A stretch of 17,216 bases of DNA, from IMG/VR virus record IMGVR_UViG_3300043172_001413; one strand, written 5' to 3'. The first letter of the stretch is position 1; every line of letters starts with the position of its first letter. Both the position numbers and the translations under genes were made by a program. Under the pieces are notes generated by a model that searched no databases, had not been told where the DNA came from, and saw only the letters and a list, made by a program, of their open reading frames with translations. This DNA is from a virus. Below are positions 2,759 through 14,900 of the stretch, one piece after another.

Positions 2759-3157
2759 TTATCCGATCTTTATTCTGATGAAATGCCCTATTTTTTTGAA
2801 TGATACTTCATGGCATTCTACTTTTTTTTCTACTCTTCCGTAGATATACATTTTTTGTCTACCATTACCTTCTATACCGCATATGAGCGGTTTGCCCAAA
2901 GCTTTGACCCAACCTATCATTGTTGTGTCATCGATAGCAGACGGTGAAGGAGAGCCTCCTGGATGAGTATGGCTAAATCCTAAAATTTTTTTAGCATTTC
3001 GGACAACTTTTTTCCAGTTAAAATCAACGGAACCAGGATTACCCTCGGATTCATAAATAAAAACACCATATAGATATTCTCCCCATTTATATCCATAGAT
3101 GATCCAGCAATTTTCATTGAAAATTCTGTCTATCAATTTATCCGCCCTGTCTATCAA
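2759..3157 (-). CDS. JAB/MPN (JAMM) metalloprotease, 132 aa
   Basis: Exact JAMM signature E...FSHTHPGGSPSPSAIDD (HxHx7Sx2D) with the upstream Glu in VFIYESEGN; the annotated start is a TTG preceded by AAGGCGG. Confidence 0.8.
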   Translation of the reverse strand: MIDRADKLIDRIFNENCWIIYGYKWGEYLYGVFIYESEGNPGSVDFNWKKVVRNAKKILGFSHTHPGGSPSPSAIDDTTMIGWVKALGKPLICGIEGNGRQKMYIYGRVEKKVECHEVSFKKIGHFIRIKIG

Positions 3158-3167
3158 TTTATCCGCC
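3126..3167. repeat. Perfect 21-nt tandem duplication (ctgtctatcaatttatccgcc x2) covering the SD/start region of the JAB gene
   Basis: Direct repeat read in the sequence; on the minus strand it duplicates GGCGGATAAATTGATAGACAG, i.e. RBS-like GGCGG plus TTG start plus IDR codons. Confidence 0.7.
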
Positions 3168-3283
3168 TTGTTTCAGTAAAATGAGAATAACAGCTATGAA
3201 TAGTAAAATGATAAAGGGTAAAACCCTATTTTTAGAAAGAGTAAAAACAACAAAAAATAAGGTGTCTTTAAAAATATTTTTCT

Positions 3284-4144
3284 TCATAATGCCCTGCTTA
3301 TCTGGCCGGACCGCTGCCCTTCTTGAATAACAGAGATGAGACTCTTTAAATCAAAATCTTTATCACCCTCTCTGCCTGTGCCATGGTCAGTCAGACATAT
3401 CCCAGCAGTTATAACCCAATGTGCCGGATCTTTGGAAATAACTGAGTTGAATGTGTGCCCGTCTACTTCATAGGTAACAAAGAGATGGTCTGAGCGTTCC
3501 TTGCTTTCTATAAATTTTCCACCGGCATATTCTACGTCTCTCTGTATGTTTCCTTTTTTCTTTTCATCAGCAATTTTTTTATCAAGTTTATATTTAATGC
3601 TGTAAGCAATTTTTTCCTCAAGGGTTAAGCCGAAATGTTTTATCCTTCCCGGTGTTCTCAATTTTTTTATGGATTCCCTGAGGTAATCCGTCCGGATCGG
3701 ATCACCTGACATGTCTATGGAATCAAACCACAGGTTTGCACCGTCATATCTGCATATGCATTTAGCGAAGTCCTCTGCTGTATCGTCGAACAGGAATATC
3801 GGCAATAAATCGTTAACTTTGAAGTTCCAGTTATTGCTTTTCATGGGGACTCCGAAATACGCTTTCTTTTTCTTAAACACCAAAATCAGTCGTACTTTAG
3901 GTAAAAAGTTAAGATACCTCTGAATTTTATCTATGTCTGCGGGTGAGGTAACTTTTGCCCTTTTGTTATTGATAGCTTTAAAAGAATACCAACCCGGATC
4001 GGTTTTCGGTATCTCAAGACGGTAGATAATACCTTCGATCCGGGTGATGATCTCTCGATTATAAAAGATGGGAGAGATGATTTCCTTTTCAGTTATCATC
4101 TCCTCCTGCACTCCTATTCTATCAATTGTATCAAGAATGTTCAT
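3284..4144 (-). CDS. 286-aa protein whose C-terminus resembles a UBC/E2 active site (HWVITAGICLTDH versus E2 HPNI...G.ICLD); N-terminal ~200 aa unassigned
   Basis: ATG overlaps the stop of the upstream vWA gene (ATGA); motif similarity only, with a short tail after the Cys, so the E2 assignment is tentative. Confidence 0.5.
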   Translation of the reverse strand: MNILDTIDRIGVQEEMITEKEIISPIFYNREIITRIEGIIYRLEIPKTDPGWYSFKAINNKRAKVTSPADIDKIQRYLNFLPKVRLILVFKKKKAYFGVPMKSNNWNFKVNDLLPIFLFDDTAEDFAKCICRYDGANLWFDSIDMSGDPIRTDYLRESIKKLRTPGRIKHFGLTLEEKIAYSIKYKLDKKIADEKKKGNIQRDVEYAGGKFIESKERSDHLFVTYEVDGHTFNSVISKDPAHWVITAGICLTDHGTGREGDKDFDLKSLISVIQEGQRSGQISRAL

Positions 4145-5715
4145 GCTGCTTTTTTCTTTTTGCCGAAGTCTTTTCTCTTGGGAAGTGGTGTGTCCATGAT
4201 CTCATATAGAAGATCAAGTTTTGACTTCCGTGATAGTAAAGGTATAAGACCAGGTAATGCATAATAATCATCACCTTCAGGCTCGTAATAATCAAATGCA
4301 ATTTTAGCCAGTTTTAAACTCTGGCTGAGTTTTTTATTACCCCAATTAGTCTTCATGTATATAATGGTAATAGTAGGAGTAATGTTGTGCCTCAGTTCAT
4401 ACTTTTTAAAGGTATCAGCGAACCAAGGATCAGTATTCTCATCTTCATCAGTGATAATAACGATTTGTTCAACACAACGCCCTTTTCTCATAAGGAAATC
4501 CAAAGCTGAGCCAATGGATGTTCCGCCGTGAGCGTGCAACGGTTTGAAAGCTCTCTCCCAGGCAGACATACCAGTTTCGCCTTCTTCTGCAACAATCTCA
4601 CGCGCTGCTGTATCGAAAGCCACTACAATTAAATTAGCTTCAGTGGCTCCTGAGACGAGAGAAGAGACGCTTTTACCCACTTCGAGAGCTGTTTGCATAG
4701 ACCCACTTTTGTCGATAAAGATGGCAGTATCAACTTTTATGACACCTCTTTTCTTTATTTGGGTGTCTGCAATTTCCTCCAGAATTTTGACACTATTCTC
4801 ATCCTTGACTCTACCGGTTTTTACTGCTTGTTTTGACTTCAATGCAGAGACACTCTTTGATTTCTTTGCCTTTTCGAGTTTCTCTGTAATGAGTTTTTTG
4901 GTGTCCTCATTTTTCATCGCACCTTTTTCTTCAAGAGAAGCATAGTTGTTTATAACTTCCTGAGGAGACATGGCATTGATCAGAGCAACCAGAATTGATG
5001 GAGTAACTTTCTCAACCAATCCAACAGCGACGGTGTAAGGAATTTTGTTCTCTACAATCAGTCGTGCAACTTTTGCAGGGCTTTTCGTATCTGCTATCTG
5101 CTGAAAAACATTAAGCTTGCTGTCTTCAGGGTATTTGCTCTTGAAGAGAATCTCTTCAGCACGGTTGCTTGGTGCAATATGAAGAGTTGCATAGAGCCCT
5201 TTCAGATCATTTTTGTTTCTGATAACAATTGAATCAAAGATATCAGTTTCGGTTTCAATGTAATTTAAGAAAGCTCTGATATCATTTCTGAAAGATGTCG
5301 GTATATTCTTGAAGAGGCCTACAGTTTTTTCCTCTATAGTTATTTCATCGACTTTTCTCTTGCCTTTGAGAATTTTCTTCCCTGTTTTCCTTCTCAGCTT
5401 TATTTTCTTTCCTTTAACAAAGCCGACAACTTTCCTTTTCAGGAATGTAGGTAGATCTCTGAATAGAGCAAGACCAACTTCACGGTTTTCATGGTACGTA
5501 TCACATACAAGCGCTCCTACGAACACTTCTTTATGATCGCGTATATCTCCATTTTTGAAATACCATGCCGCCAGATGTGAGTAAAAGACTGGGTCGATTT
5601 TTTGCAGTTCCAGGTGCACATCTTTGAGTTTGTCAGTATCCCGGTGAGGGCAGCTTAAAAAGGAATTCAACATTCCGACTCTGACATCCTGTTCGTTTTC
5701 TCTAACTCTGTTCAT
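4141..5715 (-). CDS. 524-aa protein with a C-terminal von Willebrand factor A (vWA, MIDAS) domain, an alpha-helical N-terminal half and a lysine-rich basic linker; architecture resembles Ro60/Rsr (TROVE + vWA)
   Basis: MIDAS motif AIFIDKSGSMQ...(T)...VIITDEDEN; basic stretch KGKKIKLRRKTGKKILKGKRK; AAWYFKNG resembles Ro60 ADWYNEKG but the motifs are not colinear with Ro60, so TROVE is unproven; strong GGAGG SD. Confidence 0.8.
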   Translation of the reverse strand: MNRVRENEQDVRVGMLNSFLSCPHRDTDKLKDVHLELQKIDPVFYSHLAAWYFKNGDIRDHKEVFVGALVCDTYHENREVGLALFRDLPTFLKRKVVGFVKGKKIKLRRKTGKKILKGKRKVDEITIEEKTVGLFKNIPTSFRNDIRAFLNYIETETDIFDSIVIRNKNDLKGLYATLHIAPSNRAEEILFKSKYPEDSKLNVFQQIADTKSPAKVARLIVENKIPYTVAVGLVEKVTPSILVALINAMSPQEVINNYASLEEKGAMKNEDTKKLITEKLEKAKKSKSVSALKSKQAVKTGRVKDENSVKILEEIADTQIKKRGVIKVDTAIFIDKSGSMQTALEVGKSVSSLVSGATEANLIVVAFDTAAREIVAEEGETGMSAWERAFKPLHAHGGTSIGSALDFLMRKGRCVEQIVIITDEDENTDPWFADTFKKYELRHNITPTITIIYMKTNWGNKKLSQSLKLAKIAFDYYEPEGDDYYALPGLIPLLSRKSKLDLLYEIMDTPLPKRKDFGKKKKAA

Positions 5716-5747
5716 TCAATTTTCCTCCTTTTTGGTTAGAATGAATC

Positions 5748-6005
5748 TCAGGTACCGAAAGTCGCATTCGGTCTTACAGTAATATCACCTGACTTGTGGA
5801 ACTCAACAATCAGTTCGTTGAATTCATCTACCGGCTTGTCGAAATGATTTGCCAGGGCTCTTTTGATCTGGTCTCCGTTCAGATCTTTTGACTGAAGCTC
5901 AGCATCGTCTTCGATACCAAGACCAGCTCTGTCATCCACTGGGATAAGATCATCAAGATCAATATCCTCAGTTCTGCCATCATAAACGATGTGTACAGCG
6001 TCCAT
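5748..6005 (-). CDS. Small acidic protein with a beta-grasp-like N-terminus (candidate ubiquitin-like modifier), first gene of the operon; ends ...ATFGT
   Basis: MDAVHIVYDGRTEDIDL resembles the first beta-hairpin of ubiquitin (MQIFVKTLTGKTITLEV); AGGAGGAG SD; lies upstream of E2-like, JAB and E1 genes as in Ubl-E2-JAB-E1 operons; single C-terminal Gly followed by Thr. Confidence 0.45.
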   Translation of the reverse strand: MDAVHIVYDGRTEDIDLDDLIPVDDRAGLGIEDDAELQSKDLNGDQIKRALANHFDKPVDEFNELIVEFHKSGDITVRPNATFGT

Positions 6006-6043
6006 TATGACTCCTCCTGTTAAAGTAAAAAGTGTCCTCAGTT

Positions 6044-6074
6044 TATTATACCCATTTTCAACTGAGATTGTTCA
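6044..6074 (-). promoter_or_regulatory. Candidate sigma70-type promoter for the minus-strand operon (-35 TTGAAC, 19-nt spacer, -10 TATAAT)
   Basis: Minus-strand TATAAT at 6049..6044 and TTGAAC at 6074..6069; the spacer is 2 nt longer than optimal. Confidence 0.3.
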
Positions 6075-6194
6075 AGAAAATCACACTTTATTAATGATAC
6101 TGGTTTTTAGCTGTTAATTTAAACTAAAAAATGGTAATAATATAATTTTTTTCTGGGTCAAAGTAAAAAAAAATTAAAATAGTGAAAATAAGTG

Positions 6195-6223
6195 TTGACA
6201 GAACTTCTTTTTAGTGGTATATT
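6195..6223 (+). promoter_or_regulatory. Strong sigma70-type promoter: TTGACA, 17 nt, TG-n-TATATT (extended -10)
   Basis: TTGACA 6195..6200, spacer gaacttctttttagtgg, TATATT 6218..6223 with TG at 6215..6216; drives the plus-strand RNA cluster. Confidence 0.6.
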
Positions 6224-6258
6224 ATTCTTCGTAGAGTCTCTGCGCCCAAATTTATCGG

Positions 6259-6266
6259 GCGTACAT
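6259..6266 (+). promoter_or_regulatory. GCNTACAT motif copy A (gcgTACAT), 2 nt before tRNA-Val
   Basis: One of seven copies of (G)GCNTACAT-W, each immediately 5' of an RNA gene. Confidence 0.4.
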
Positions 6267-6268
6267 TT

Positions 6269-6343
6269 GAAGATATAGCTCAGTGGTAGAGCGATCATTT
6301 TACAGATGATAAGTCCCTGGCTCGAAACCAGGTTTCTTCACCA
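6269..6343 (+). tRNA. tRNA-Val (anticodon UAC), encoded CCA
   Basis: Cloverleaf folded by eye: acceptor GAAGATA/TTTCTTC (one T.T mismatch), D-arm GCTC-AGTGGTA-GAGC, anticodon stem ATCAT/ATGAT with loop TTTACAG, 5-nt variable loop, T-arm CCTGG-CTCGAAA-CCAGG (unusual C54), discriminator A, CCA. Confidence 0.75.
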
Positions 6344-6407
6344 AATCAGCACGATTAACTTGCGCAGGACTTTCTTTGAAATTATAGCAGAAAACCTAAC
6401 GGTAGAT

Positions 6408-6415
6408 GCTTACAT
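6408..6415 (+). promoter_or_regulatory. GCNTACAT motif copy B (gctTACAT)
   Basis: Motif copy preceding structured RNA B. Confidence 0.35.
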
Positions 6416-6524
6416 AACGTGAAGTCGAAAGACTTCCAGCCCCTCCACCTGCTCACAATCGGTAAGTGAGTTAGTGGTGGGGCTGGATTATCCCGGTTCG
6501 CCGGGAAGCACCTCAAACTTTTTT
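6416..6524 (+). ncRNA. Structured ncRNA B (~110 nt): GAAA-tetraloop hairpin, 12-bp GC-rich stem enclosing an inner hairpin, UUCG-tetraloop hairpin, then T6; boundaries approximate
   Basis: GAAGTC-GAAA-GACTTC (6421..6436); CCAGCCCCtCCAC/GTGGtGGGGCTGG (6436..6448 with 6474..6486) around CTCAC-AATCGGTAA-GTGAG; TCCCGG-TTCG-CCGGGA (6491..6506); T-run 6519..6524. Confidence 0.45.
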
Positions 6525-6567
6525 CTGCTTATTATAAATCGTAAATGGGCAACATCAGACATTGAGG

Positions 6568-6575
6568 GCTTACAT
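6568..6575 (+). promoter_or_regulatory. GCNTACAT motif copy C (gctTACAT)
   Basis: Motif copy preceding structured RNA C. Confidence 0.35.
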
Positions 6576-6671
6576 TAATTTTTAGGAATTAATCGTCCCC
6601 TGTAGAGTCAGGGGGCAAACCTCGGGGAAACCCGGGGAAAGCACTTAAGACTTGGTTGCTCATTTTTTTTT
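6576..6671 (+). ncRNA. Structured ncRNA C (~95 nt) ending in a T9 run: CCCCTG-TAGAGT-CAGGGG hairpin and a 7-bp GAAA-tetraloop hairpin; probable end of the first transcription unit
   Basis: Hairpins at 6597..6614 and 6620..6637; T9 at 6663..6671 preceded by only a weak AGCA/TGCT stem; boundaries approximate. Confidence 0.4.
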
Positions 6672-6676
6672 GGTCT

Positions 6677-6704
6677 TTGAAATTTTAATGTCACAACCTA
6701 ATTT
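6677..6704 (+). promoter_or_regulatory. Candidate promoter for tRNA-like D: -35 TTGAAA, 16 nt, -10 TAATTT; predicted start at the GCGTACAT motif
   Basis: TTGAAA 6677..6682; TAATTT 6699..6704; the -10 ends exactly 8 nt before TACAT, the same geometry as units E and F. Confidence 0.35.
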
Positions 6705-6709
6705 TTAAT

Positions 6710-6717
6710 GCGTACAT
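6710..6717 (+). promoter_or_regulatory. GCNTACAT motif copy D (gcgTACAT), abutting tRNA-like D
   Basis: The last T of TACAT is position 1 of the tRNA-like gene. Confidence 0.4.
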
Positions 6718-6790
6718 TATCGATAGCTCAGTGTAGAGCGCAAGAACGCTAATCTTGATGTCGTAGGCTCGAAACCTACTCGATGAACCA
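6717..6790 (+). tRNA. tRNA-like gene (74 nt with CCA) with an atypical anticodon loop ACGCUAA (C33; nominal anticodon GCU) and a short variable loop; identity and function uncertain
   Basis: Acceptor TTATCGA/TCGATGA (one G.U), D-arm GCTC-AGTGTA-GAGC, anticodon stem CAAGA/TCTTG, variable loop ATGTC, T-arm GTAGG-CTCGAAA-CCTAC (C54 again), discriminator A + CCA; a GCU anticodon without a long variable arm is not a normal tRNA-Ser. Confidence 0.6.
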
Positions 6791-6877
6791 AACAAAGCAT
6801 TTTCAACTTTTGTGACATTTATTATAAAATTTGTTCTTTGAAAAATGGGATCTGATATTTTTAATTGGCACATTTCC

Positions 6878-6896
6878 TAACTTTGGGAGCCTACAT
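6878..6896 (+). promoter_or_regulatory. -10-like TAACTT (6878..6883) plus GCNTACAT motif copy E (gccTACAT, 6889..6896)
   Basis: Same 8-nt gap between the -10-like hexamer and TACAT as in units D and F; no -35 at optimal spacing (TTGAAA lies 34 nt upstream). Confidence 0.3.
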
Positions 6897-7007
6897 TAGT
6901 TAATTTGGAGGTTCAATTCCTCCTCCCGGCACCACAAGTGCTTGATTTTCAAGTGCTTCTGATGCCGGGATGGCCAAATTGGTAAAGGCGACTGTCTTCA
7001 GAACAGT
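6897..7007 (+). ncRNA. Circularly permuted tRNA-like module: T-arm, acceptor 3' strand, ACCA, 29-nt linker hairpin, acceptor 5' strand, D-arm, complete anticodon arm with UCA
   Basis: GGAGG-TTCAATT-CCTCC (6907..6923), TCCCGGC-A-CCA (6924..6934), linker CAAGTGCTTGATTTTCAAGTGCTTCTGAT (imperfect inverted repeat), GCCGGGA (6964..6970, perfect complement of 6924..6930), TG, GCC-AAATTGGTAAA-GGC, G, ACTGT-CTTCAGA-ACAGT (6991..7007; U33, anticodon UCA, R37). Confidence 0.5.
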
Positions 7008-7067
7008 TTTAAAAAACTTGTTAACCTGCTCTTTTAACTTGAATGTGTCAATTTAAAATATCGGTCT

Positions 7068-7095
7068 TTGAAAAAAAAGGCATTTCACCTAATCT
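7068..7095 (+). promoter_or_regulatory. Candidate promoter for RNA F: -35 TTGAAA, 16 nt, -10 TAATCT
   Basis: TTGAAA 7068..7073; TAATCT 7090..7095; 8 nt upstream of TACAT (7104), matching the unit D geometry. Confidence 0.35.
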
Positions 7096-7100
7096 TTGGA

Positions 7101-7108
7101 GCCTACAT
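7101..7108 (+). promoter_or_regulatory. GCNTACAT motif copy F (gccTACAT)
   Basis: Motif copy preceding structured RNA F. Confidence 0.35.
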
Positions 7109-7227
7109 AAAAAATTCCGGTTCGACTCCGGGTTTCCCCGCCTGACAGACTTTAATAGGTCTACCAGGCGGGGAAACTAGCCGTGTGGATGGCATCAGAT
7201 AGTGAATCTGACAAAATAAATTTTTGT
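7109..7227 (+). ncRNA. Structured ncRNA F: T-arm-like hairpin (TCCGG-TTCGACT-CCGGG) followed by a perfect 13-bp hairpin and a 6-bp hairpin; 3' boundary uncertain
   Basis: 7116..7132 T-arm-like with canonical TTCGANT loop; GTTTCCCCGCCTG (7132..7144) / CAGGCGGGGAAAC (7165..7177) perfect inverted repeat with inner AGAC/GTCT; TCAGAT-AGTGA-ATCTGA 7195..7210. Confidence 0.3.
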
Positions 7228-7258
7228 TACTGCTCTTTTAACTTTGAAATGCTCTTTT

Positions 7259-7266
7259 AAATACAT
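7259..7266 (+). promoter_or_regulatory. Degenerate motif copy G (aaaTACAT)
   Basis: TACAT conserved but the upstream GC is replaced; precedes the last structured segment. Confidence 0.25.
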
Positions 7267-7392
7267 AGGATTGGGTGGTTACTCACCGAGTAATCTTTAT
7301 TTGGTTTGCCCAGCCCTCTCCTCAGAGTTACCTAGTTGGGCAATTAGCCGTAAGCCGGGAAGATTTTTCTTTAACTTCCCGGCTTATTTTTT
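7267..7392 (+). ncRNA. Structured RNA segment G (hairpins GGTTACTC-ACC-GAGTAATC and TTGCCCA...TGGGCAA) ending in the cluster terminator
   Basis: Inverted repeats read in the sequence; may be a 3' UTR-like tail of the F transcript rather than a separate RNA. Confidence 0.3.
7352..7392 (+). terminator. Rho-independent terminator: perfect 11-bp stem AAGCCGGGAAG/CTTCCCGGCTT, 12-nt loop, then ATTTTTT
   Basis: Inverted repeat 7352..7362 / 7375..7385 followed by T6 at 7387..7392; closes the RNA cluster 13 nt before the next CDS. Confidence 0.7.
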
Positions 7393-7404
7393 GTACCATT
7401 AAAT

Positions 7405-10050
7405 ATGAAATGTCCTATCTGTGGTAATTCCTATTTCTCTGATTTCTTGAAATGCCCCGCCTATAAAATCTGTCTCATCTGTAATTTATGCTGCCAAGAA
7501 ACTTTACCGGAAAAAGTATATGAAGGACTGGAAGAAAATGATGGGAAAGGTCCCGGTACAGGCCATGAAATGTCAAATGAAGAAAAATCTATTAATACAA
7601 ATCTCGCTAATTCCCTCTATCATATGTATCTTCCCCGGACTGTCCTGGATATCGGATCCAAATATCCTATTTTTCTCCATACTTTAAAAGACCGTGCAGA
7701 AGTACTGGGAATTGACGGTATCCCTGAAATTATTAAATATGGTGAGGAACTCGGTGTCCCGGTTATTAACACTGACTTTGAATCCATAGACATTACACCA
7801 TATAAGAATAAATTTGACCTGATAACCGTCATACATACCTTTGAGCATTTTTATAATCCATTTGAGACTCTAAAAAAGATTTTGGAGTGTCTGAGTTCTC
7901 GGGGAGTTCTCTATATGCGTATCCCGAATATGGACGTATCAGGCATTGACCGGGATTTTACTAAGCATCATTTAACGATCCACCCCTTTATTTATTCCAC
8001 GCAAGCTATGTATATGTTGAGTGAAAAACTGGGTTATGAGATATTCAGGATTGATGACCAGGGAGGGTACGGGCAGAGTGATTTTTTCTTCAGGAAAAGA
8101 AAGGATAAATTCACCCTTTCAGTATGTATGATTGTGAAAAATGAAGAAAAGAATATAACTGATTGTCTTGAGAGTATTAAAGACGTGGCAGATGAATTTG
8201 TGATCGTTGATACTGGATCTACGGATAGAACGAAAGAGGTGGTCTCAAAATACACCTCTAACATCTATGATTTCAAATGGATAGATGATTTTTCTGCTGC
8301 CCGGAATTTTTCTTTGAGTAAGGCTACCGGTGATTTTGTGCTCTGGCTCGATGCAGATGATATTGTAGAGAATCCAGAAGCTATTTTACCCTTGCTGAAG
8401 GAAAGTTTTGATGCCCATGATTTCAATATTATATATGGGAATGATAATTTCAGCCAGGCACGGTTGTTCCGAAATTTCAGAAATATCCGTTTTGCCGGCC
8501 GCGTGCATGAATACCCTGTGTTGGATGGTCTGTTTTTAGAGATTCAAACGGATTTACCCACACCACAACGGGTTATTTCTCATCAGCGGGAGACAAGAGT
8601 AAATGTGTATCATAAGACAGAGAAACACAGTACTGAGGACAGGTCAGAGAGAAACTACCGCATTTTAAAAAAAGAATTGGAAGAGGATCCAGATAATTCA
8701 CGGACTCTCTTTTATCTGGGTAACGTTTTGAAAGAATTAAAAAGTTATGATGAAGCTATTGAAACATACCGGAAATATCTGAAGGTTTCAACTTGGGTTG
8801 ATGAGAAATGGATGGCTCAAAAATATATAGGCTGTATACTTCTATGGCAGGGATATTATAAAGAAGCGATAGAGGAATTTAAAGGGGCTATTGAGATAGA
8901 TAATAGATGGGCAGAATCCTATTATTATATAGGGGAATGTCTTTTTTTATTAAAAGATTACGATGGATGTATTGATTGGATGTTGAAAGCTGTGGAGAAA
9001 AAGCCCCCTTTCTCACCCCTGTGGAAAGAAACATCTGTTTATCAGGATGCACCCTATCGTTATATTTTTGCTGTCTATGATGTAAAAGGAGATTACAAGA
9101 AAGCTATTCATTATTGTAAGAGAGCCTGCGAGAAAAAACCCGGGAATGAATGGCTTGAAGGCAGGTTATTACACTTTGAAAGTCTTCTTGGGGGCGATTT
9201 ACGCGTAATAGAGTGTTTCAGGCAGGGAGCACTGGGAGACTGTTTAATGACAACTGCAGCTCTGCGAGGTCTGAAAGAGAAAGATCCTGGATGTTTTATT
9301 CGATATGTAACGCATCCTCATAGTATGCAAATTCTTGAAGGTAATAAATATATCGATGAATTGGTTTCAGAATCAAAAGAAGAACATGCGCAGAAGATTT
9401 ACTTTTCCTATCCGGACAAGGACTCTCCGTTGGAGGATGAAGGGTATCCTGATAAACCTTTGAGCAGGCATTTGATAAAAATTTTCAATGAATGTGCTGG
9501 GTTACCTGATAATAGTATGGAAATGGAGTGTACTCTTTCTGAGAAAGAGGAAAATGTGGGTCGATCATTACGCCGTCAGTATAAGAAATATTTAACATTG
9601 CATGTTAAATCTGGATGGTCCGCTTATAAAGATTGGTATAATGACCGGTGGAGACTTGTTGTTGAAAAATTATTTCAAAGAGGTTATGTGACCGTACAAA
9701 TAGGTCACAAGGAGGATTTTTTATTAAGAAATACTGTTGATTTCCGGGGTCATACGATAAAAGAAGTTTTGTCTGCTATTAAATATGCTGATGTTCACAT
9801 GGGTATTGATAGTTTCACTAATCATGTTTCTGCGACGTTTTTTGCCCCTTCAGTGATTTTATTTGGTAGTACTTCACCTATAGGGTCAGGTTATGACCAG
9901 AACATAAATATTTACAAGGACTTGCCGTGTCAGCCCTGTTATCGGGAATATAAAAGTAAAGATCCGTGTCCATGTGGGAAGAAATGTATGAGTTTGATCA
10001 CGGTTGATGAGGTTCTGAAGAGCGTTATTAAACTTCTGGAAGAAAGATGA
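7405..10050 (+). CDS. 881-aa multidomain enzyme: N-terminal Cys-rich zinc ribbon, class I SAM methyltransferase, GT2 glycosyltransferase, TPR repeats, C-terminal GT9 (heptosyltransferase-like) glycosyltransferase
   Basis: CPICG...CPAYKICLICNLCC; VLDIGSK...FDLITVIHTFEHFYNP (methyltransferase motifs); LSVCMIVKNEE...VIVDTGSTD...WLDADD (GT2 DxD); TPR-like helices in the YLGNVLKELKSYDEAIETYRKYL region; GALGDCLMTT...HMGIDSFTNHVSATFFAPSVILFGSTSP (GT9 signature). Confidence 0.85.
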   Translation: MKCPICGNSYFSDFLKCPAYKICLICNLCCQETLPEKVYEGLEENDGKGPGTGHEMSNEEKSINTNLANSLYHMYLPRTVLDIGSKYPIFLHTLKDRAEVLGIDGIPEIIKYGEELGVPVINTDFESIDITPYKNKFDLITVIHTFEHFYNPFETLKKILECLSSRGVLYMRIPNMDVSGIDRDFTKHHLTIHPFIYSTQAMYMLSEKLGYEIFRIDDQGGYGQSDFFFRKRKDKFTLSVCMIVKNEEKNITDCLESIKDVADEFVIVDTGSTDRTKEVVSKYTSNIYDFKWIDDFSAARNFSLSKATGDFVLWLDADDIVENPEAILPLLKESFDAHDFNIIYGNDNFSQARLFRNFRNIRFAGRVHEYPVLDGLFLEIQTDLPTPQRVISHQRETRVNVYHKTEKHSTEDRSERNYRILKKELEEDPDNSRTLFYLGNVLKELKSYDEAIETYRKYLKVSTWVDEKWMAQKYIGCILLWQGYYKEAIEEFKGAIEIDNRWAESYYYIGECLFLLKDYDGCIDWMLKAVEKKPPFSPLWKETSVYQDAPYRYIFAVYDVKGDYKKAIHYCKRACEKKPGNEWLEGRLLHFESLLGGDLRVIECFRQGALGDCLMTTAALRGLKEKDPGCFIRYVTHPHSMQILEGNKYIDELVSESKEEHAQKIYFSYPDKDSPLEDEGYPDKPLSRHLIKIFNECAGLPDNSMEMECTLSEKEENVGRSLRRQYKKYLTLHVKSGWSAYKDWYNDRWRLVVEKLFQRGYVTVQIGHKEDFLLRNTVDFRGHTIKEVLSAIKYADVHMGIDSFTNHVSATFFAPSVILFGSTSPIGSGYDQNINIYKDLPCQPCYREYKSKDPCPCGKKCMSLITVDEVLKSVIKLLEER

Positions 10051-10400: not shown

Positions 10401-11021
10401 TTAACTCTTATTTGCTACATAGGCTAAGCACGAATTCTTAGCTTCAATAATCTTAATAAAATCGTTTGCATTTCCACCTTTGTCCGGATGATATATTAAA
10501 GATAATTTTCTAAATGCTGTTTTAATACTATTTTCAGTAGCTTCAGATGTTAATCCCAACTTCTCGAAGGATTTAACTGGTGTAGGTATCGAAGCTTGTA
10601 TAAAAAAATTAGCAAAACGGTTAAACATATTATCAAAAGTACCAAAAGAACTAAAAGAACTAAAACTCTGCCACTCATAAAATCTTTGATTCTCTTCGCG
10701 CTGTTTATAATAAGCTGTTTCTTTCTTTTTAAGATAATCTCCAAACAATTCGTTTTTGACTTTAATAATTACAGTAGCATAAAAATATTTCCAAAGGCTT
10801 TCAGGTAAACCTTTTCCTTTAGCTTTGTTTGAAATACCATCGAATTTTTGCCTGATTTCCTTAATTACTATTTTAAAGCGATTATAATTAAAATTATTAG
10901 TTGATGCGAGGTATTCGATAACAGCCATAAAATCTGCGGTTAGATCGACTATGAAATTATTATGATTAAATTGCTCTTGAACGTCCAACTTATACTTTTT
11001 GATATATTCTTTTGGTTTCAT
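10401..11021 (-). CDS. J-domain (DnaJ-like) protein with a C-terminal J-domain, 206 aa
   Basis: LGLTSEATENSIKTAFRKLSLIYHPDKGG contains the diagnostic HPD tripeptide in J-domain helix II/III context; GAGGAG SD. Confidence 0.7.
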   Translation of the reverse strand: MKPKEYIKKYKLDVQEQFNHNNFIVDLTADFMAVIEYLASTNNFNYNRFKIVIKEIRQKFDGISNKAKGKGLPESLWKYFYATVIIKVKNELFGDYLKKKETAYYKQREENQRFYEWQSFSSFSSFGTFDNMFNRFANFFIQASIPTPVKSFEKLGLTSEATENSIKTAFRKLSLIYHPDKGGNANDFIKIIEAKNSCLAYVANKS

Positions 11022-11207: not shown

Positions 11208-14200
11208 ATGTCAAAGACCAAAAGAAAATGGATCTGTGGTGTTGGTGATTTACCTGATACCACTCAGAATTACAACGCTTTTCAAGCCTTACGTGCAGAA
11301 GACATTCCATACGATCCGACTCTAAGTATTAAAGATGCTATAGAATCTGGGCTGACCGGTGTTCAGGGGCCCACTGGAGCCACGGGTACTGGTATCCAGG
11401 GCGAGACAGGAGTCGCGGGTATTTATGGAGAAACGGGTGTACAGGGTCAAACTGGAATAGGAATTCAGGGAGAAACAGGTGTTGAAGGAATACAAGGTCA
11501 AACCGGAGCTTCGGGTGGTGGAGAAACAGGAATTCAGGGAGAAACAGGTGTTGAAGGAATACAAGGTCAAACCGGAGCTTCGGGTGGTGGAGAAACAGGG
11601 ATTCAGGGAGAAACAGGTGTTCAAGGAATTGCCGGACAAACCGGAGCTCTGGGGGGTGGAGACACAGGAGTCCAGGGCGAAACGGGTATCCAGGGAATTG
11701 CCGGACAAACTGGTGCGGGTATCCAGGGTCAGACGGGTGCTGGTATCCAGGGTCAAACAGGTATTCAAGGAGAGACTGGTGCTGGTACTCAGGGCGAAAC
11801 GGGTATCCAGGGAACGCAGGGTTCACAGGGCGAAACGGGTATTCAGGGCTATACAGGAGTCCAGGGAGAGACAGGAGTTCAGGGAACACAGGGAGAGACA
11901 GGAGTTCAGGGAACACAGGGCGAGACAGGAGTTCAGGGTGAGACCGGTACTGGTATCCAGGGAGAAACGGGTGTCGCTGGAGTAGCAGGAGAGACAGGAG
12001 TTCAGGGAGATCAGGGCGAGACAGGAGTAGCAGGAGTCGCAGGAGAGACGGGTGTCCAGGGAACACAGGGAGAGACAGGAGTACAGGGTCAGACGGGTGC
12101 TGGTATCCAGGGCGAGACAGGAGTTCAGGGAACACAGGGCGAGACAGGAGTTCAGGGTGAGACCGGTACTGGTATCCAGGGCGAAACGGGTGTCCAGGGA
12201 ACACAGGGCGAGACAGGAGTTCAGGGTGAGACCGGTACTGGTATTCAGGGCGAGACAGGAGTTCAGGGAGATCAGGGAGAGACAGGAGTACAGGGTGAGA
12301 TAGGTGAAACGGGTGTCCAAGGTGATATTGGTCCTCAAGGTCCAAGAGGAGACCAGGGGGAGACCGGAGTCCAGGGAATTCAAGGTATCCAAGGAACTAC
12401 AGGGGTCCAAGGTATCCAGGGTGTCACCGGGGTTCAGGGAGAAACAGGAATCCAGGGAACCCAGGGTAATCAAGGTGAAACAGGAGTTGAAGGTATACAG
12501 GGAGACACAGGTATAGCAGGTGTAGCTGGTGTCACGGGGACCCAAGGCTCACAGGGAGTAACAGGAGTTGAGGGTACACAGGGAGACACAGGTGCAGGTC
12601 TTCAAGGTGTTACGGGTATCCAAGGGATCCAAGGCCAGACAGGTGTACAGGGAGAGACCGGTATAGAGGGTGAAACTGGAATAGAGGGCTCTCAGTTTGT
12701 CGGTTTTATGTATAATGCTTTAACAAATAGTCAATCGGATACAGATCCAGGGACAGGGAAATTAAAATGGAGTACTGTTGGTCAGACAAATGCTGCTGAA
12801 TTATATGTAGATGATGAGGATAAAAACTCTATAGATTATAGTTCACTTTATATCACTTTAAAAAATAGTGATGTTATTCGTGTCCAGCGTCAGGAAAATC
12901 CCAAACAATTTCAAATTTTTAAAATAGATGCTGTTGTTGATAGAACAGGATGGTTTCGTTTTGAAGTTTCTTTTATTGTAAGTGGAGGTTCTGTTTTTAG
13001 TCTTAATGATAATCTTATTTTGATTTTTGAGATTTCTGGACCGCAGGGAGAGACAGGAGTAGCAGGAGAGACAGGAGTTCAGGGAGACACAGGTGTAGCA
13101 GGTGTAGCGGGGGAGACCGGAGTCCAGGGAGTTCAGGGTATCCAGGGTAATCAGGGCGAGACAGGAGTTCAGGGAGACACAGGAGCGGGAGTAGCCGGAG
13201 AGACAGGAGTTCAGGGAGACACAGGTATAGGTGTAGCGGGGGAGACCGGAGTCCAGGGAGTTCAGGGAGAGACAGGAGTAGCAGGAGAGACAGGAGTTCA
13301 GGGGACTCAGGGAGAGACAGGAGTACAGGGTCAGACGGGTGCTGGTATCCAGGGGGAGACCGGAGTTCAGGGAACACAAGGAGAGACTGGTTCTCAGGGT
13401 CAGACGGGTGCTGGTATCCAGGGCGAGACAGGAGTTCAGGGGACTCAGGGAGAGACTGGTTCTCAGGGTCAGACTGGTGCTGGTATCCAGGGCGAGACAG
13501 GAGTTCAGGGTACACAGGGAGAGACAGGTTCTCAGGGTCAGACTGGTGCTGGTATCCAGGGAGAGACAGGAGTTCAGGGTACACAGGGAGAGACAGGTTC
13601 TCAGGGTCAGACGGGTGCTGGTATCCAGGGAGAGACAGGAATTCAGGGTCAGACGGGTATTCAAGGAGTCACGGGAGAAACTGGAGTCGGTATCCAGGGA
13701 GAGACAGGAGTTCAGGGAACACAGGGAGAGACAGGAGTCCAGGGTCAGACTGGTGCTGGTATCCAGGGAGAAACAGGAATTCAGGGAACACAGGGAGTAA
13801 CAGGAGCTGGGATTCAAGGAGAGACAGGAGTTCAGGGAGCACAGGGCGATACAGGAGTTCAGGGAGCACAGGGCGAGACAGGAGTTCAGGGTCAGACGGG
13901 CGAGACAGGAGTTCAGGGCGAGACAGGAGTCGCGGGTGTAGCAGGAGAGACAGGAGTTGCGGGTATTCAGGGAGAGACCGGAAGTCAGGGTCAGACGGGT
14001 GTTCAGGGAGACACAGGTATAGCAGGTATAGCGGGGGAGACCGGAGTCCAGGGTAATCAGGGTATCCAGGGTAATCAGGGAGAGACAGGAGTTCAGGGTA
14101 CACAGGGAGAGACAGGTTCTCAGGGTCAGACGGGTGCTGGTATCCAGGGAGAGACAGGAATTCAGGGTCAGACGGGTATTCAAGGAGTCACGGGTATCCA

Positions 14201-14900
14201 GGGTGAGACAGGAGCGGGTGTAGCAGGAGAGACAGGAGTTCAAGGAGACACTGGTATAGGATCGTTTATTCAAATAGACCCTAATAATATAAATAGATAC
14301 GAAGTTGCAGACGGAGGTGGTGAAGAAGTATGGATTGTTTCAAGCTCAGCTACTTATTTATTAGTGCCCTGGACAAGAGCCAGTACAAGTTTAACAATTA
14401 CTCGAGCAGGACATGGCCATGTTACAGGAAATAGAATTATTGTCAGAAATTCTAATGTTGAATATCAGTCCACGCTTATAACATCATATAATGCAAATGA
14501 TTTTACAGTAACTACTGTAGATTCAGGAGCAACATCAGGCTCATCGGCGACCTATTTATTAGGTTTTTCTTTTAGTCATACCGGCATGCCTAAAACAGGT
14601 GGAACTTTAAGTGCTCCTATAGGAGATCATGCCGATGTGCAGCTTTTATCTATGAGGGTTCGTACTGGACCGAGAGCGGGTACAACTTATGACTTGGTAG
14701 TTCCGGCAAGTTCTCTTAATGGTGCAGGGGATAATACAAGTCTTGCGGATTGCTATATCCCTGATTTTAATGTTAGAACAGATTCTAATTCATTAGCTGC
14801 CATAGCAGCTACTATAGCCACAAATATCGGCGGTTCTTATACAACATTTAGATTTGGTAATTTAGGGTCGCTATCAAGATTTATTATACTCCAATTTTAA
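11208..14900 (+). CDS. Proline-free collagen-like (G-X-Y) fibre protein, 1230 aa: N-terminal head, collagen-like region 1 (~11340..12690), globular insert (~12691..13035), collagen-like region 2 (~13036..14265), C-terminal globular domain (~14266..14897); probable tail-fibre or surface-fibre protein
   Basis: AGGAG SD 6 nt before the ATG; hundreds of GETGVQG/GTQGETG/GAGIQG triplets with Thr/Gln at Y and no Pro; frequent G-X-G one-residue interruptions; non-repeat domains at both ends. Confidence 0.85.
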   Translation: MSKTKRKWICGVGDLPDTTQNYNAFQALRAEDIPYDPTLSIKDAIESGLTGVQGPTGATGTGIQGETGVAGIYGETGVQGQTGIGIQGETGVEGIQGQTGASGGGETGIQGETGVEGIQGQTGASGGGETGIQGETGVQGIAGQTGALGGGDTGVQGETGIQGIAGQTGAGIQGQTGAGIQGQTGIQGETGAGTQGETGIQGTQGSQGETGIQGYTGVQGETGVQGTQGETGVQGTQGETGVQGETGTGIQGETGVAGVAGETGVQGDQGETGVAGVAGETGVQGTQGETGVQGQTGAGIQGETGVQGTQGETGVQGETGTGIQGETGVQGTQGETGVQGETGTGIQGETGVQGDQGETGVQGEIGETGVQGDIGPQGPRGDQGETGVQGIQGIQGTTGVQGIQGVTGVQGETGIQGTQGNQGETGVEGIQGDTGIAGVAGVTGTQGSQGVTGVEGTQGDTGAGLQGVTGIQGIQGQTGVQGETGIEGETGIEGSQFVGFMYNALTNSQSDTDPGTGKLKWSTVGQTNAAELYVDDEDKNSIDYSSLYITLKNSDVIRVQRQENPKQFQIFKIDAVVDRTGWFRFEVSFIVSGGSVFSLNDNLILIFEISGPQGETGVAGETGVQGDTGVAGVAGETGVQGVQGIQGNQGETGVQGDTGAGVAGETGVQGDTGIGVAGETGVQGVQGETGVAGETGVQGTQGETGVQGQTGAGIQGETGVQGTQGETGSQGQTGAGIQGETGVQGTQGETGSQGQTGAGIQGETGVQGTQGETGSQGQTGAGIQGETGVQGTQGETGSQGQTGAGIQGETGIQGQTGIQGVTGETGVGIQGETGVQGTQGETGVQGQTGAGIQGETGIQGTQGVTGAGIQGETGVQGAQGDTGVQGAQGETGVQGQTGETGVQGETGVAGVAGETGVAGIQGETGSQGQTGVQGDTGIAGIAGETGVQGNQGIQGNQGETGVQGTQGETGSQGQTGAGIQGETGIQGQTGIQGVTGIQGETGAGVAGETGVQGDTGIGSFIQIDPNNINRYEVADGGGEEVWIVSSSATYLLVPWTRASTSLTITRAGHGHVTGNRIIVRNSNVEYQSTLITSYNANDFTVTTVDSGATSGSSATYLLGFSFSHTGMPKTGGTLSAPIGDHADVQLLSMRVRTGPRAGTTYDLVVPASSLNGAGDNTSLADCYIPDFNVRTDSNSLAAIAATIATNIGGSYTTFRFGNLGSLSRFIILQF
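13338..13682 (+). repeat. Five near-identical tandem copies of a 69-nt (23-aa GAGIQGETGVQGTQGETGSQGQT) unit inside fibre gene 1
   Basis: GGTGCTGGTATCCAGG recurs at 13338, 13407, 13476, 13545 and 13614 (period 69) with only synonymous or near-synonymous differences. Confidence 0.8.

Follow-up and report, generated by a model that had tools for sequence, protein, structure and literature searches.

What kind of system is formed when a large von Willebrand factor A (vWA) protein of a virus is encoded beside a cluster of structured RNAs? The question is raised by a DNA of 17,216 nt (IMG/VR record IMGVR_UViG_3300043172_001413; "the window" below means this whole stretch), in which the gene of a 524-amino-acid (aa) protein (4141–5715, minus strand) is found near an array of tRNAs and tRNA-like RNAs on the plus strand. 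A first-pass annotation, made from the letters of the DNA, had proposed that protein and array are a counterpart of the Ro60 protein and its Y RNAs. The conservation of Ro60 and Y RNAs extends from bacteria to humans; the protein is also known as a major autoantigen. The present analysis established the Ro60 homology of the protein, a covarying RNA frame shared by the members of the array, the tRNA-like nature of cargos held within it, the conserved adjacency of array and gene, and a conserved protein operon. The reading we favour, with a probability of roughly 55%, is that the locus encodes a phage Ro60/Y-RNA-type ribonucleoprotein (RNP) system in a modular form, composed of a docking frame and interchangeable cargos.

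The 524-aa protein had been credited with the domain architecture of Ro60, and this was borne out by structure prediction, by profile searches and by the residues of its MIDAS (the adhesion site that depends on a metal ion). In the AlphaFold2 (AF2) model, calculated from a 46-sequence alignment (predicted local distance difference test score 84, predicted template modelling score 0.77), the N-terminal ~320 aa are helical. Foldseek comparison of this model with the Protein Data Bank (PDB) placed full-length Ro60/TROVE structures at all of ranks 1–13 (E 1.4e-11 to 6.8e-9; template modelling (TM) scores of 0.54–0.64 across 513–586 aligned columns), including 9kop, 1yvp, 9nfa, 9nep, 9nen, 2i91, 9l5y, 1yvr, 2nvo and 9nf8, which come from Thermus phage phiLo, Xenopus, human and Deinococcus. 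The best match was Ro60 of phage phiLo (E 1.4e-11). Proteins sharing only the vWA domain followed far behind (from E 6e-6, TM 0.26). The structural check for TROVE similarity thus supported the ring fold.

Sequence profiles led to the same family. A profile (A5) built from a 75-sequence alignment of the broad family and searched against PDB sequences matched human Ro60 (9nen, E 1.8e-17), the TROVE protein of phiLo (9l5y, E 1.1e-13; profile positions 23–394 onto residues 60–432, the longest alignment), Xenopus Ro60 (1yvp, E 1.4e-12; profile positions 102–420) and Deinococcus Rsr (2nvo, E 1.9e-8). These alignments cross the TROVE part, well upstream of the vWA domain. The MIDAS residues D335-x-S337-x-S339 and D423 are invariant, and T399 nearly so, in the alignments of 46 and 75 sequences. 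Since the fold matches, the A5 profile matches and the MIDAS residues agree, the 524-aa protein, in which a TROVE-like helical ring precedes the vWA domain, represents a true Ro60 lineage that has diverged very far.

The extent of this divergence is considerable. Identity to the solved Ro60 structures is 11–16%, the single sequence had no match among PDB sequences, and a narrow profile (A1) reached phiLo Ro60 at E 0.068 only. The suggested profile search with the Pfam TROVE model (PF05731) yielded no match at E≤0.1, either for the window protein or for 10 distant relatives; Pfam returned weak VWA_2 (aa 331–424 of the window protein) and VWA_CoxE matches for this set, together with weak matches to PF25045, a Ro60-specific vWA model, in two of the 10 relatives. 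Searches of PHROGs, PADLOC and NCBIfam gave weak vWA matches at most. The same TROVE model scored 54.9 bits with a control protein encoded by another phage (locus L031, described below; L-numbers designate related or compared loci, and the lineages span 28–100% identity to the window's Ro60-like protein). The blank TROVE searches, the weak VWA_2 and VWA_CoxE matches and the low identity are what might be expected of an unrelated protein of helical repeats and a vWA domain, for example of the CoxE or MoxR-partner type. Against this, the full-length structural matches went to Ro60 exclusively, four Ro60 orthologues were matched by a profile reaching upstream of the vWA domain, and some relatives carry the Ro60-type vWA match. 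We therefore consider an origin outside the Ro60 family very improbable.

An exhaustive search indicated that the family is large (1456 clusters at 50% identity, E≤1e-3) and that it occurs almost only on metagenome contigs of huge phages. Within the helical ring of the window protein, a Lys/Arg-rich two-stranded β-hairpin (KGKKIKLRRKTGKKILKGKRK...) is inserted at aa 103–132. It is absent from many relatives of ~490 aa, whose profile matches split around positions 100–135.

The intergenic stretch upstream of the protein genes (6006–7404) contains, at 6195–7392 on the plus strand, a single RNA operon with a sigma-70-like promoter, six modules and a terminator. The promoter (6195–6223; TTGACA-17-TATATT with a TG extension) agrees with the consensus at 11 of 12 positions, is the best of the region and lies 13 nt 5′ of the first module. 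Module A (6236–6371), identified by its minimum free energy (MFE) fold and the module finder, contains a tRNA-Val(UAC) with an encoded CCA (6269–6343), detected by ARAGORN and by Rfam (6269–6340, 60.3 bits). Module B (6386–6529) holds a three-hairpin RNA whose long hairpin occupies 6435–6487 (MFE z-score −7.2), and module C (6543–6665) three short hairpins, one of them with a GAAA tetraloop (z-score −7.1); no Rfam family was assigned to either. Module D (6687–6819) carries a second tRNA-like RNA with CCA (6717–6790), which was recognized by the Rfam tRNA model (6717–6787, 51.2 bits) and not called by ARAGORN. Modules E (6854–7062) and F (7074–7258) contain permuted tRNA-like RNAs: the former is enclosed by a 21-bp outer helix (6854–6874/7042–7062; inverted repeats I1 and I3; z-score −8.1), while the latter has extra hairpins (inverted repeats I4 and I14; z-score −6.95). 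The z-scores of the window modules range from −2.7 to −8.1. The operon ends with an unframed tail RNA of hairpins and an intrinsic terminator (7259–7392), whose stem (7351–7386; I12 arms of 12 nt, 100% complementary) is followed by TTTTTT, the U-tract of the transcript; both were also seen in the MFE fold. The cargos of the operon are therefore two tRNAs with encoded CCA (A and D), two permuted tRNA-like RNAs (E and F) and two hairpin RNAs (B and C).

The first-pass annotation had described this region as a 1.2-kb array of tRNAs and tRNA-like RNAs sharing a back-to-back promoter region with the vWA gene. Rfam and ARAGORN confirm that the cluster is real, although only two of its members are canonical tRNAs and its units are six framed modules. 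A region (~6006–6230) is indeed shared with the array, but by the gene of an 85-aa protein (5748–6005), which separates the Ro60-like gene from the intergenic region, and not by the Ro60-like gene.

Two details of the non-coding region deserve mention here. The 3′ part (UUGGGCAAUUAGCCGU) of the tail at 7259–7350 is similar (repeat D7, 74% identity) to the 3′ acceptor strand of module F and to the beginning of its D arm. A weak YrlB match at 7342–7400 was discarded, as it corresponds to the terminator hairpin.

In all six modules, unconstrained MFE folding recovered the same arrangement, in which the cargo RNA is enclosed in one two-helix frame. Helix 1 is formed by the 5′ and 3′ ends of the module and comprises 9–24 bp, with a sequence that differs from module to module. 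It is followed by a conserved, asymmetric internal loop (5′ YYUAAY.. opposite 3′ RACUY; CCUAAY.. and AACUU in the window) and by helix 2 of ~8 bp, which is closed by invariant G-C and C-G pairs. On the 5′ side, helix 2 leads into an invariant GC|NUACAW, of which NUACAW is single-stranded, and then into the cargo; on the 3′ side, the cargo is followed by A, GC-N6-R-ACUY and the complement of helix 1. Every RNA in the regions upstream of the Ro60-like gene that were inspected in related phages was enclosed in this frame. In L009, for instance, the helix-1 strands are perfectly complementary in ACAAAUGCUC/GAGCAUUUGU, AAAACUGCUC/GAGCAGUUUU, CAAGUGUUC/GAACACUUG and AAGUCAUGUC/GACAUGACUU.

Several tests indicated that the frame is maintained as an RNA structure. 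In an anchored test, helix-1 runs of at least 9 bp were found at 46 of the 247 candidate sites, compared with 16 of 984 mismatched controls. In a gap-free alignment (A6) of 50 modules from 17 phage lineages, 88.7% of the cells were paired (55.4% in shuffles); for helix 1 the percentage is inflated by the choice of arms with at least 7 contiguous pairs, but the diversity of the arm sequences is not. The covariation score was 0.909 (0.234 when shuffled), a value reached in 0 of 500 shuffles, and compensatory double changes were present in 9/9 pairs of helix 1 and 6/8 pairs of helix 2. Pairing dropped to 28–42% when the partner columns were slid. Helix 2, which played no role in the selection of modules, surpassed every shuffle. 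A strict frame finder produced 44 matches in 195 kb (both strands), as against 0.33 in block-shuffled sequence; within Ro60-like loci these were all located upstream of the gene and on a single strand, with 0 downstream. Frame variants in L017 and L024 were missed by the regular expression, and a narrow DNA pattern of the frame (CTTTAACNNNNNGTGCTTACAT) re-found the L009 contig only. The frame is thus an evolutionarily conserved RNA structure.

Two known types of element were set aside: integron attC sites, since the 3′ motif is not GTTRRRY and the cargo lies within the repeat rather than between repeats, and archaeal bulge-helix-bulge splice sites, since the loops of the frame face each other and staggered 3-nt bulges are missing.

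Four of the five inter-module spacers contain a common motif, TCTTTGAAA (6373–6381, 6674–6682, 6835–6843 and 7065–7073), which has 5 matches in the window (0.57 expected) and is also present between modules in L003, L011, L013 and L025. A role in processing or as a promoter element is possible, although the distance to −10-like elements is inconsistent. When this motif and the repeated 5′ motif of the modules (..GCNTACAT) were considered as sigma-70 or Bacteroidetes −33/−7 promoters, the assignment was rejected because the spacing varies from 15 to 37 nt and the flanks form covarying helices across the motif.

The permuted cargos resemble a known Y RNA, the bacterial YrlA, in their topology. 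In module E, as read from the sequence, a T arm (6907–6923) is followed by a closed, extended acceptor hairpin (6924–6970), a class-II-type D arm (6972–6989) and an anticodon arm (6991–7007) with the loop CUUCAGA and the anticodon UCA; the acceptor stem of 7–8 bp is closed by an extra hairpin. Module F has a T arm (7117–7131), a 13-bp GC-rich closed hairpin (7132–7177), a D-like hairpin (7180–7193) and two further hairpins; homologues with UUCCCC...GGGGAA are present in L003, L009, L011 and L012. Both modules (6907–6989 in E, 7117–7193 in F) thus show the order T arm, closed acceptor, D arm that is characteristic of YrlA. The topology proposed earlier for the permuted module stood in this respect. 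Unlike YrlA, however, the module keeps an anticodon arm of its own, and it gives no YrlA match. In ten homologues of module E, from loci whose Ro60-like proteins are 31–100% identical, the T, D and anticodon arms covary, the acceptor stems are closed by 4–30 nt, and the 7-nt anticodon loops are canonical (U33, R37), with the anticodons UCA, UGA, GCU, AUU, UUA and ACG. The ACCA of the acceptor loop in the window copy is replaced by ACUA in the L003 homologue.

Model searches placed these RNAs near known families and within none. Module E gave partial matches to beta_tmRNA (on the T arm and acceptor; 27.5 bits, gathering threshold 84) and to tmRNA_permuted (13.6 bits, threshold 47), and ARAGORN found no tmRNA in the window. 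The covariance-model search with Rfam YrlA (RF02553) and Y_RNA, suggested as a check, detected nothing in the window at E≤10; that E and F escape the YrlA model is probably due to the long insertion in the acceptor hairpin. Sister modules produced sub-threshold YrlA matches in L025 (31.3 bits), L021 (27.7 bits) and L011 (24.7 bits); the gathering threshold of 69 bits was reached nowhere. In L025, the closing stem and the T, acceptor-like and D arms are all aligned to the model, and the anticodon stem is built from the 5′ and 3′ strands, exactly as in YrlA. In terms of score, 5′ motif and (in the window) permutation point, the RNAs fall outside formal YrlA membership; what they share with YrlA is topology and genomic context.

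A different phage, L031 (IMGVR_UViG_3300025508_000008), encodes a canonical Ro60 recognized by Pfam TROVE (E 1.1e-14). Upstream of its gene, on one strand and ending 290 nt from it, lie a permuted tmRNA (64.3 bits), ~12 tRNAs and, closing the tRNA array, two T/acceptor/D modules, none of them with the frame. The YrlA scores were 36.3 and 28.3 bits; the value of 36.3 bits indicates that phage YrlA-like RNAs fall below the Rfam threshold even beside canonical Ro60 genes. The locus came to light when the 18-nt D arm of module E served as the query of an RNA-first scan. Most of the matches were ordinary phage tRNA-Leu genes, which share this D arm, so that the scan otherwise said little about association.

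Further observations concern cargos and their anticodons. Permuted tRNA-like modules with the same D arm also occur in L032 (1455–3635) and L075, on the same strand as, and 1–2.5 kb upstream of, the gene of a 709-aa vWA protein that has a weak Ro60-like profile match (E ~1e-6 in a small database) and may represent a further divergent Ro60-like lineage. The UCA anticodon of module E (loop 6996–7002) would read UGA; the L003 homologue has UGA (Ser), and the UUA of the L024 homologue would read UAA. The anticodon loop of module D, ACGCUAA (6744–6750), has C instead of U at position 33. Cargo tRNAs of related arrays often have unusual anticodons (AUU, AAU, UCA). In L010 (~2760–2900), L014 (~3360–3560) and L015 (~2690–2870), CRISPR-repeat-like units (a short hairpin followed by GUGGAUUGAAAC) are interspersed among frame modules; in L014, a frame with only a T arm as its cargo has one such unit on either side.

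The link between array and protein was examined in related loci. Of the 22 viral loci, 19 have tRNA or tRNA-like genes, as called by ARAGORN, in the ~2 kb preceding the Ro60-like gene, and the other three (L010, L020 and L026) carry frame modules. In all lineages examined, from 28 to 100% protein identity, the array adjoins the Ro60-like operon in one or the other orientation. The divergent layout first described is peculiar to the clade of the window, L003 and L006, where the array is inverted; in most related phages, array and gene share a strand, with the array upstream. Which gene borders the array on its far side varies between lineages. The most divergent loci (L026 at 28% identity, L023, L021 and L022) contain, just upstream of the Ro60-like gene, a bare frame RNA of 71–81 nt that is capped by a short apical hairpin and has the stem/internal loop/stem organization of a classical Y RNA. 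Frame RNA is also kept in L019 and L026, in which orthologues of the ubiquitin-like (Ubl), OB-fold, JAB and ThiF proteins of the operon (see below) were not detected.

This pattern bears on whether the RNAs might be bound by another protein, such as the 286-aa OB-fold protein of the operon or a host factor, with the Ro60 adjacency reflecting inherited synteny without direct contact. An OB-fold protein is a plausible RNA binder, all sampled phages come from one broad group of huge phages, and the frame motif is unlike any known Ro60 site. On the other hand, L019 and L026 retain the frame RNA although no orthologue of the other operon proteins was detected there, the array holds its place despite a varying orientation and far-side gene, and every characterised Ro60 has neighbouring partner RNAs (PMC4201824, PMC12135203). 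Another binder consequently seems quite unlikely to us.

A more serious competitor is a processing or maturation cassette, in which the frame, as a paired leader and trailer with a conserved loop, would mark units of the polycistronic transcript for an endonuclease, much as processing stalks flank rRNAs, and cleavage would set the cargos free as tRNAs and small RNAs. Under this explanation the permuted modules would be true circularly permuted class-II tRNAs, the two pieces of which are held together by the frame helices at the variable-arm site; opening of the acceptor loop would fall to RNase P and to 3′ trimming or the addition of CCA, and Ro60 would be a mere quality-control factor for the precursors or uninvolved. 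Much about the cargos suits such a role. The permuted ones have 7-bp acceptors, canonical T loops, G18-G19 in the D loop and 7-nt anticodon loops (U33, R37), their anticodons vary between phages, and the 18-nt D arm of module E is identical to that of phage class-II tRNA-Leu genes. The spacer motif UCUUUGAAA (5 window matches, 0.57 expected) is found in spacers in 4 of 5 cases. YrlA of M. smegmatis is itself cut by RNase P and receives CCA (PMC4201824). Other observations fit poorly. Ordinary tRNA arrays in the same loci, with genes spaced 17–70 nt apart, lack the frame, which therefore is not a generic requirement for tRNA processing in these phages. In the most divergent loci, bare frames with a cargo of 20–26 nt are kept beside the Ro60-like gene, which is hard to reconcile with a flank that is simply thrown away. 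Conservation of the loop sequences suggests a particular protein partner, and the sole invariably linked protein is the Ro60-like one. The CCA of the module E acceptor loop is, moreover, not conserved. We regard the cassette as possible but clearly less probable than docking. The two are also mutually compatible, given the known role of Ro60 in the quality control of RNA precursors.

In the docking reading, the frame would be the counterpart of the Y RNA stem, that is, a conserved docking site for the Ro60-like ring, possibly shared with the OB-fold protein, whose start codon overlaps the Ro60 stop codon. The framed RNAs would act as intact units, and their cargos as variable effector modules that the RNP may present to tRNA-handling enzymes of host or phage, to nucleases or to the ribosome. 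Such presentation would be analogous to the tethering of PNPase by the bacterial Ro60–Y RNA complex. The protein with a C-terminal Gly, the E1-like enzyme and the JAB peptidase may modify a component of the RNP or serve as a sulfur-carrier system.

Several points weigh against this reading. The frame to which Ro60 would bind lacks the known Ro60-contact motif (GNCGAAN0-1G or GGUCCGA); the expectation of Y-RNA-like partners stood as regards an array kept beside the gene down to 28% identity but not as regards this motif. Its sole occurrence, GUCGAAAG at 6424–6431, is in a hairpin loop of module B and at chance level for 1.2 kb. The differing anticodons, 7-bp acceptors and CCA ends suit released decoding tRNAs at least equally; the tRNAs of A and D, in particular, have 7-bp acceptor stems, a discriminator base, an encoded CCA and single-stranded linkers to the frame. 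To these are added the lack of YrlA and Y_RNA matches in the window, neither model reaching its threshold in any locus, and the pre-selection of helix-1 arms mentioned above. Adjacency was sampled in ~4–10 kb around the Ro60-like gene, so that arrays may also exist elsewhere in these genomes of 400–600 kb. Finally, all the phages are related, and the conserved synteny could partly be a matter of inheritance rather than functional constraint.

The protein operon on the minus strand has the gene order 85-aa protein with a C-terminal Gly, Ro60, tandem OB-fold protein, JAB and E1-like ThiF. A sigma-70-like promoter candidate (6045–6074; TGAACA-18-TATAAT) precedes it, matching the consensus, by which alone it was found, at 10 of 12 positions. 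The 286-aa protein of tandem OB-fold barrels (3284–4144) overlaps with its start the stop codon of the Ro60-like gene (4141–4144). The next conserved gene encodes a 132-aa JAB/MPN metallopeptidase (2759–3157; Pfam Prok-JAB 29.1 bits, cut-off 25 bits), with weak Cap3/desampylase matches in NCBIfam, and the last one an E1-like ThiF-family adenylyltransferase of 215 aa (2108–2755; Pfam ThiF E 7.6e-19). The latter has NCBIfam matches of the ThiF/MoeB/UbaA type, every one below its cut-off, and is matched by PADLOC E1-E2 models in the E1 part only. This order recurred when four lineages were examined one gene at a time, and likewise across 22 viral loci, the protein at the OB-fold position being 281–299 aa long. 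Searches with phmmer over the open reading frames (ORFs) of the loci detected orthologues of the 85-aa protein in 21 loci, of the 286-aa protein in 20, of JAB in 15 and of ThiF in 11 (a count limited by the length of flank covered), down to 31% Ro60 identity.

The 85-aa protein (5748–6005), the first of the operon, ends in ..ITVRPNATFG-T. RP..x[FW]G is present in 120 of 120 relatives examined, and the C-terminal Gly is invariant in the alignment; it is the terminal residue in 73/120 and is followed by 1–5 unconserved residues in 44/120. Such a Gly, terminal or capped, is a classic mark of ubiquitin-like or sulfur-carrier proteins that are trimmed by a JAB peptidase. The protein had no match in Pfam, in a PDB profile search or among annotated database entries, and hhalign comparison with ubiquitin and MoaD sequences was likewise negative. 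Because of the conserved C-terminal Gly signature, it is a candidate ubiquitin-like or sulfur-carrier protein. The suspected link of Ro60 to ubiquitin-like machinery therefore holds in so far as an E1-like enzyme, a JAB peptidase and a small protein ending in Gly share a conserved operon with Ro60, but does not extend to a complete conjugation pathway: an E2 was not found in the operon, whose 286-aa protein consists of OB folds and does not have the UBC fold.

Variation in the gene content of the operon was also noted. A 42-codon ORF (3159–3287, minus strand) between the OB-fold and JAB genes is not present in all lineages; it was called as a gene on two identical contigs (L001, 8202–8330; L002, 5206–5334). 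In L004 (9762–11643) and L005 (9427–11323), ThiF is followed by an AAA_33 (polynucleotide-kinase-like) gene and by that of a 470-aa WGR/PARP_reg/PARP protein, which may mean that the operon also has a part in RNA-end repair or ADP-ribosylation.

A bolder scheme would join all these parts. The Ro60 ring and its OB-fold partner might form a programmable RNP, loaded with swappable cargos (tRNAs, permuted mimics, hairpin decoys and, in some phages, CRISPR-repeat-like units) that protect, repair or decoy tRNAs against tRNA-targeting defences of the host, under the control of a dedicated ubiquitin-like E1/JAB module, by which the 85-aa protein would be attached to the RNP or else used in thiolating the RNAs. 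As a whole this scheme is speculative and, in our estimate, rather unlikely.

The window derives from a huge phage. A 100%-identical copy of the 524-aa protein is encoded on a 512-kb contig, its relatives are found on contigs of 130–570 kb, and a tblastn search of GenBank phages retrieved a single record with this protein, an unannotated 595-kb uncultured phage. The remaining genes of the window fit a jumbo phage: an 881-aa methyltransferase/GT2/TPR/GT9 fusion (7405–10050), a DnaJ-domain protein (10401–11021) and a 1230-aa collagen-repeat protein resembling a tail fibre (11208–14900). A survey of jumbo phages had recorded ROT/TROVE proteins in a small subset (PMC7824862).

Literature searches retrieved no description of the shared frame, of framed tRNAs or of Ro60 in a Ubl-like/E1/JAB operon; within these searches, the present locus is the first link of Ro60 to an operon of E1-like, JAB, Gly-ended and tandem OB-fold proteins. 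It also ties Ro60 to tRNA arrays in phages and reveals a large Ro60 family that was missed by standard domain models. The locus is a natural series in which one presumed docking frame is combined with many cargos (six here, up to seven or more in relatives), which makes the two-part logic of Y RNAs, with a docking stem and an effector module, directly testable. If the permuted modules were working two-piece tRNAs, they would be the first in viruses that infect bacteria.

Comparison with known systems places the locus next to Ro60 and YrlA. More than 250 bacteria and phages have YrlA RNAs next to their Ro60 genes; these RNAs combine a 5′ GNCGAAN0-1G motif with V, T, acceptor-like and D arms (Chen et al. 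2014, PMC4201824). As in these systems, a TROVE ring protein with a vWA/MIDAS domain is encoded immediately alongside its presumptive partner RNAs, at least one RNA of the window has a T arm, a closed acceptor-like stem-loop and a D arm, and the 5′ and 3′ ends form a terminal stem. Unlike in them, the protein is too divergent for Pfam TROVE, there are six RNAs instead of one or two, and the frame loop and GC|NUACAW are unrelated to GNCGAAN0-1G. The permuted module of the window is opened at the variable region and has a complete anticodon arm, whereas in YrlA the opening is at the anticodon loop; the frame also encloses bona fide tRNAs; and in place of rtcB or rtcA there are Ubl-like, E1-like, JAB and OB-fold genes.

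Phage phiLo (PDB 9KOP, 9L5Y) offers the closest viral parallel, since its Ro60 binds two Y-like RNAs encoded upstream of the gene and recruits host PNPase (PMC12135203). Both phages combine a Ro60 with stem-bulge-stem RNAs (Yrl1 and Yrl2 in phiLo). The two phiLo RNAs have a CGAA motif and neither a common frame nor tRNA cargo, the phiLo protein is recognized as TROVE by sequence, and Ubl-like, E1-like, JAB and OB-fold partners have not been described for it. Binding and PNPase recruitment have been demonstrated for phiLo, and for the window locus a comparable interaction is what we infer.

Modules E and F resemble permuted tRNAs and two-piece tmRNAs in that the T arm and 3′ acceptor strand precede the 5′ acceptor strand and D arm, and it is exactly this part of module E that the beta_tmRNA and tmRNA_permuted models partially match. 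They differ from permuted tmRNA in having no tag reading frame and no pseudoknots, with scores far below both thresholds, and from permuted tRNAs in having no bulge-helix-bulge motif (as judged by eye).

The operon, in turn, recalls the prokaryotic Ubl/sulfur-carrier systems, of which TtuB–TtuC and SAMP–UbaA are examples. Triads of a prokaryotic Ubl, an E1-like ThiF/MoeB protein and a JAB peptidase have been described (Iyer et al. 2006, PMC1779556), and in the window operon, too, a small protein whose C-terminal Gly is invariant is encoded together with a JAB peptidase and an adenylating enzyme of the ThiF family. It differs in that an E2 was not found, the β-grasp fold of the small protein is a candidate only, and the genes are interleaved with those of Ro60 and the OB-fold protein. 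Because the protein passes the structure, profile and MIDAS tests and the RNAs share the topology and context of YrlA, the locus is not a separate category but extends the known Ro60/Y-RNA partnership in an unusual, modular form.

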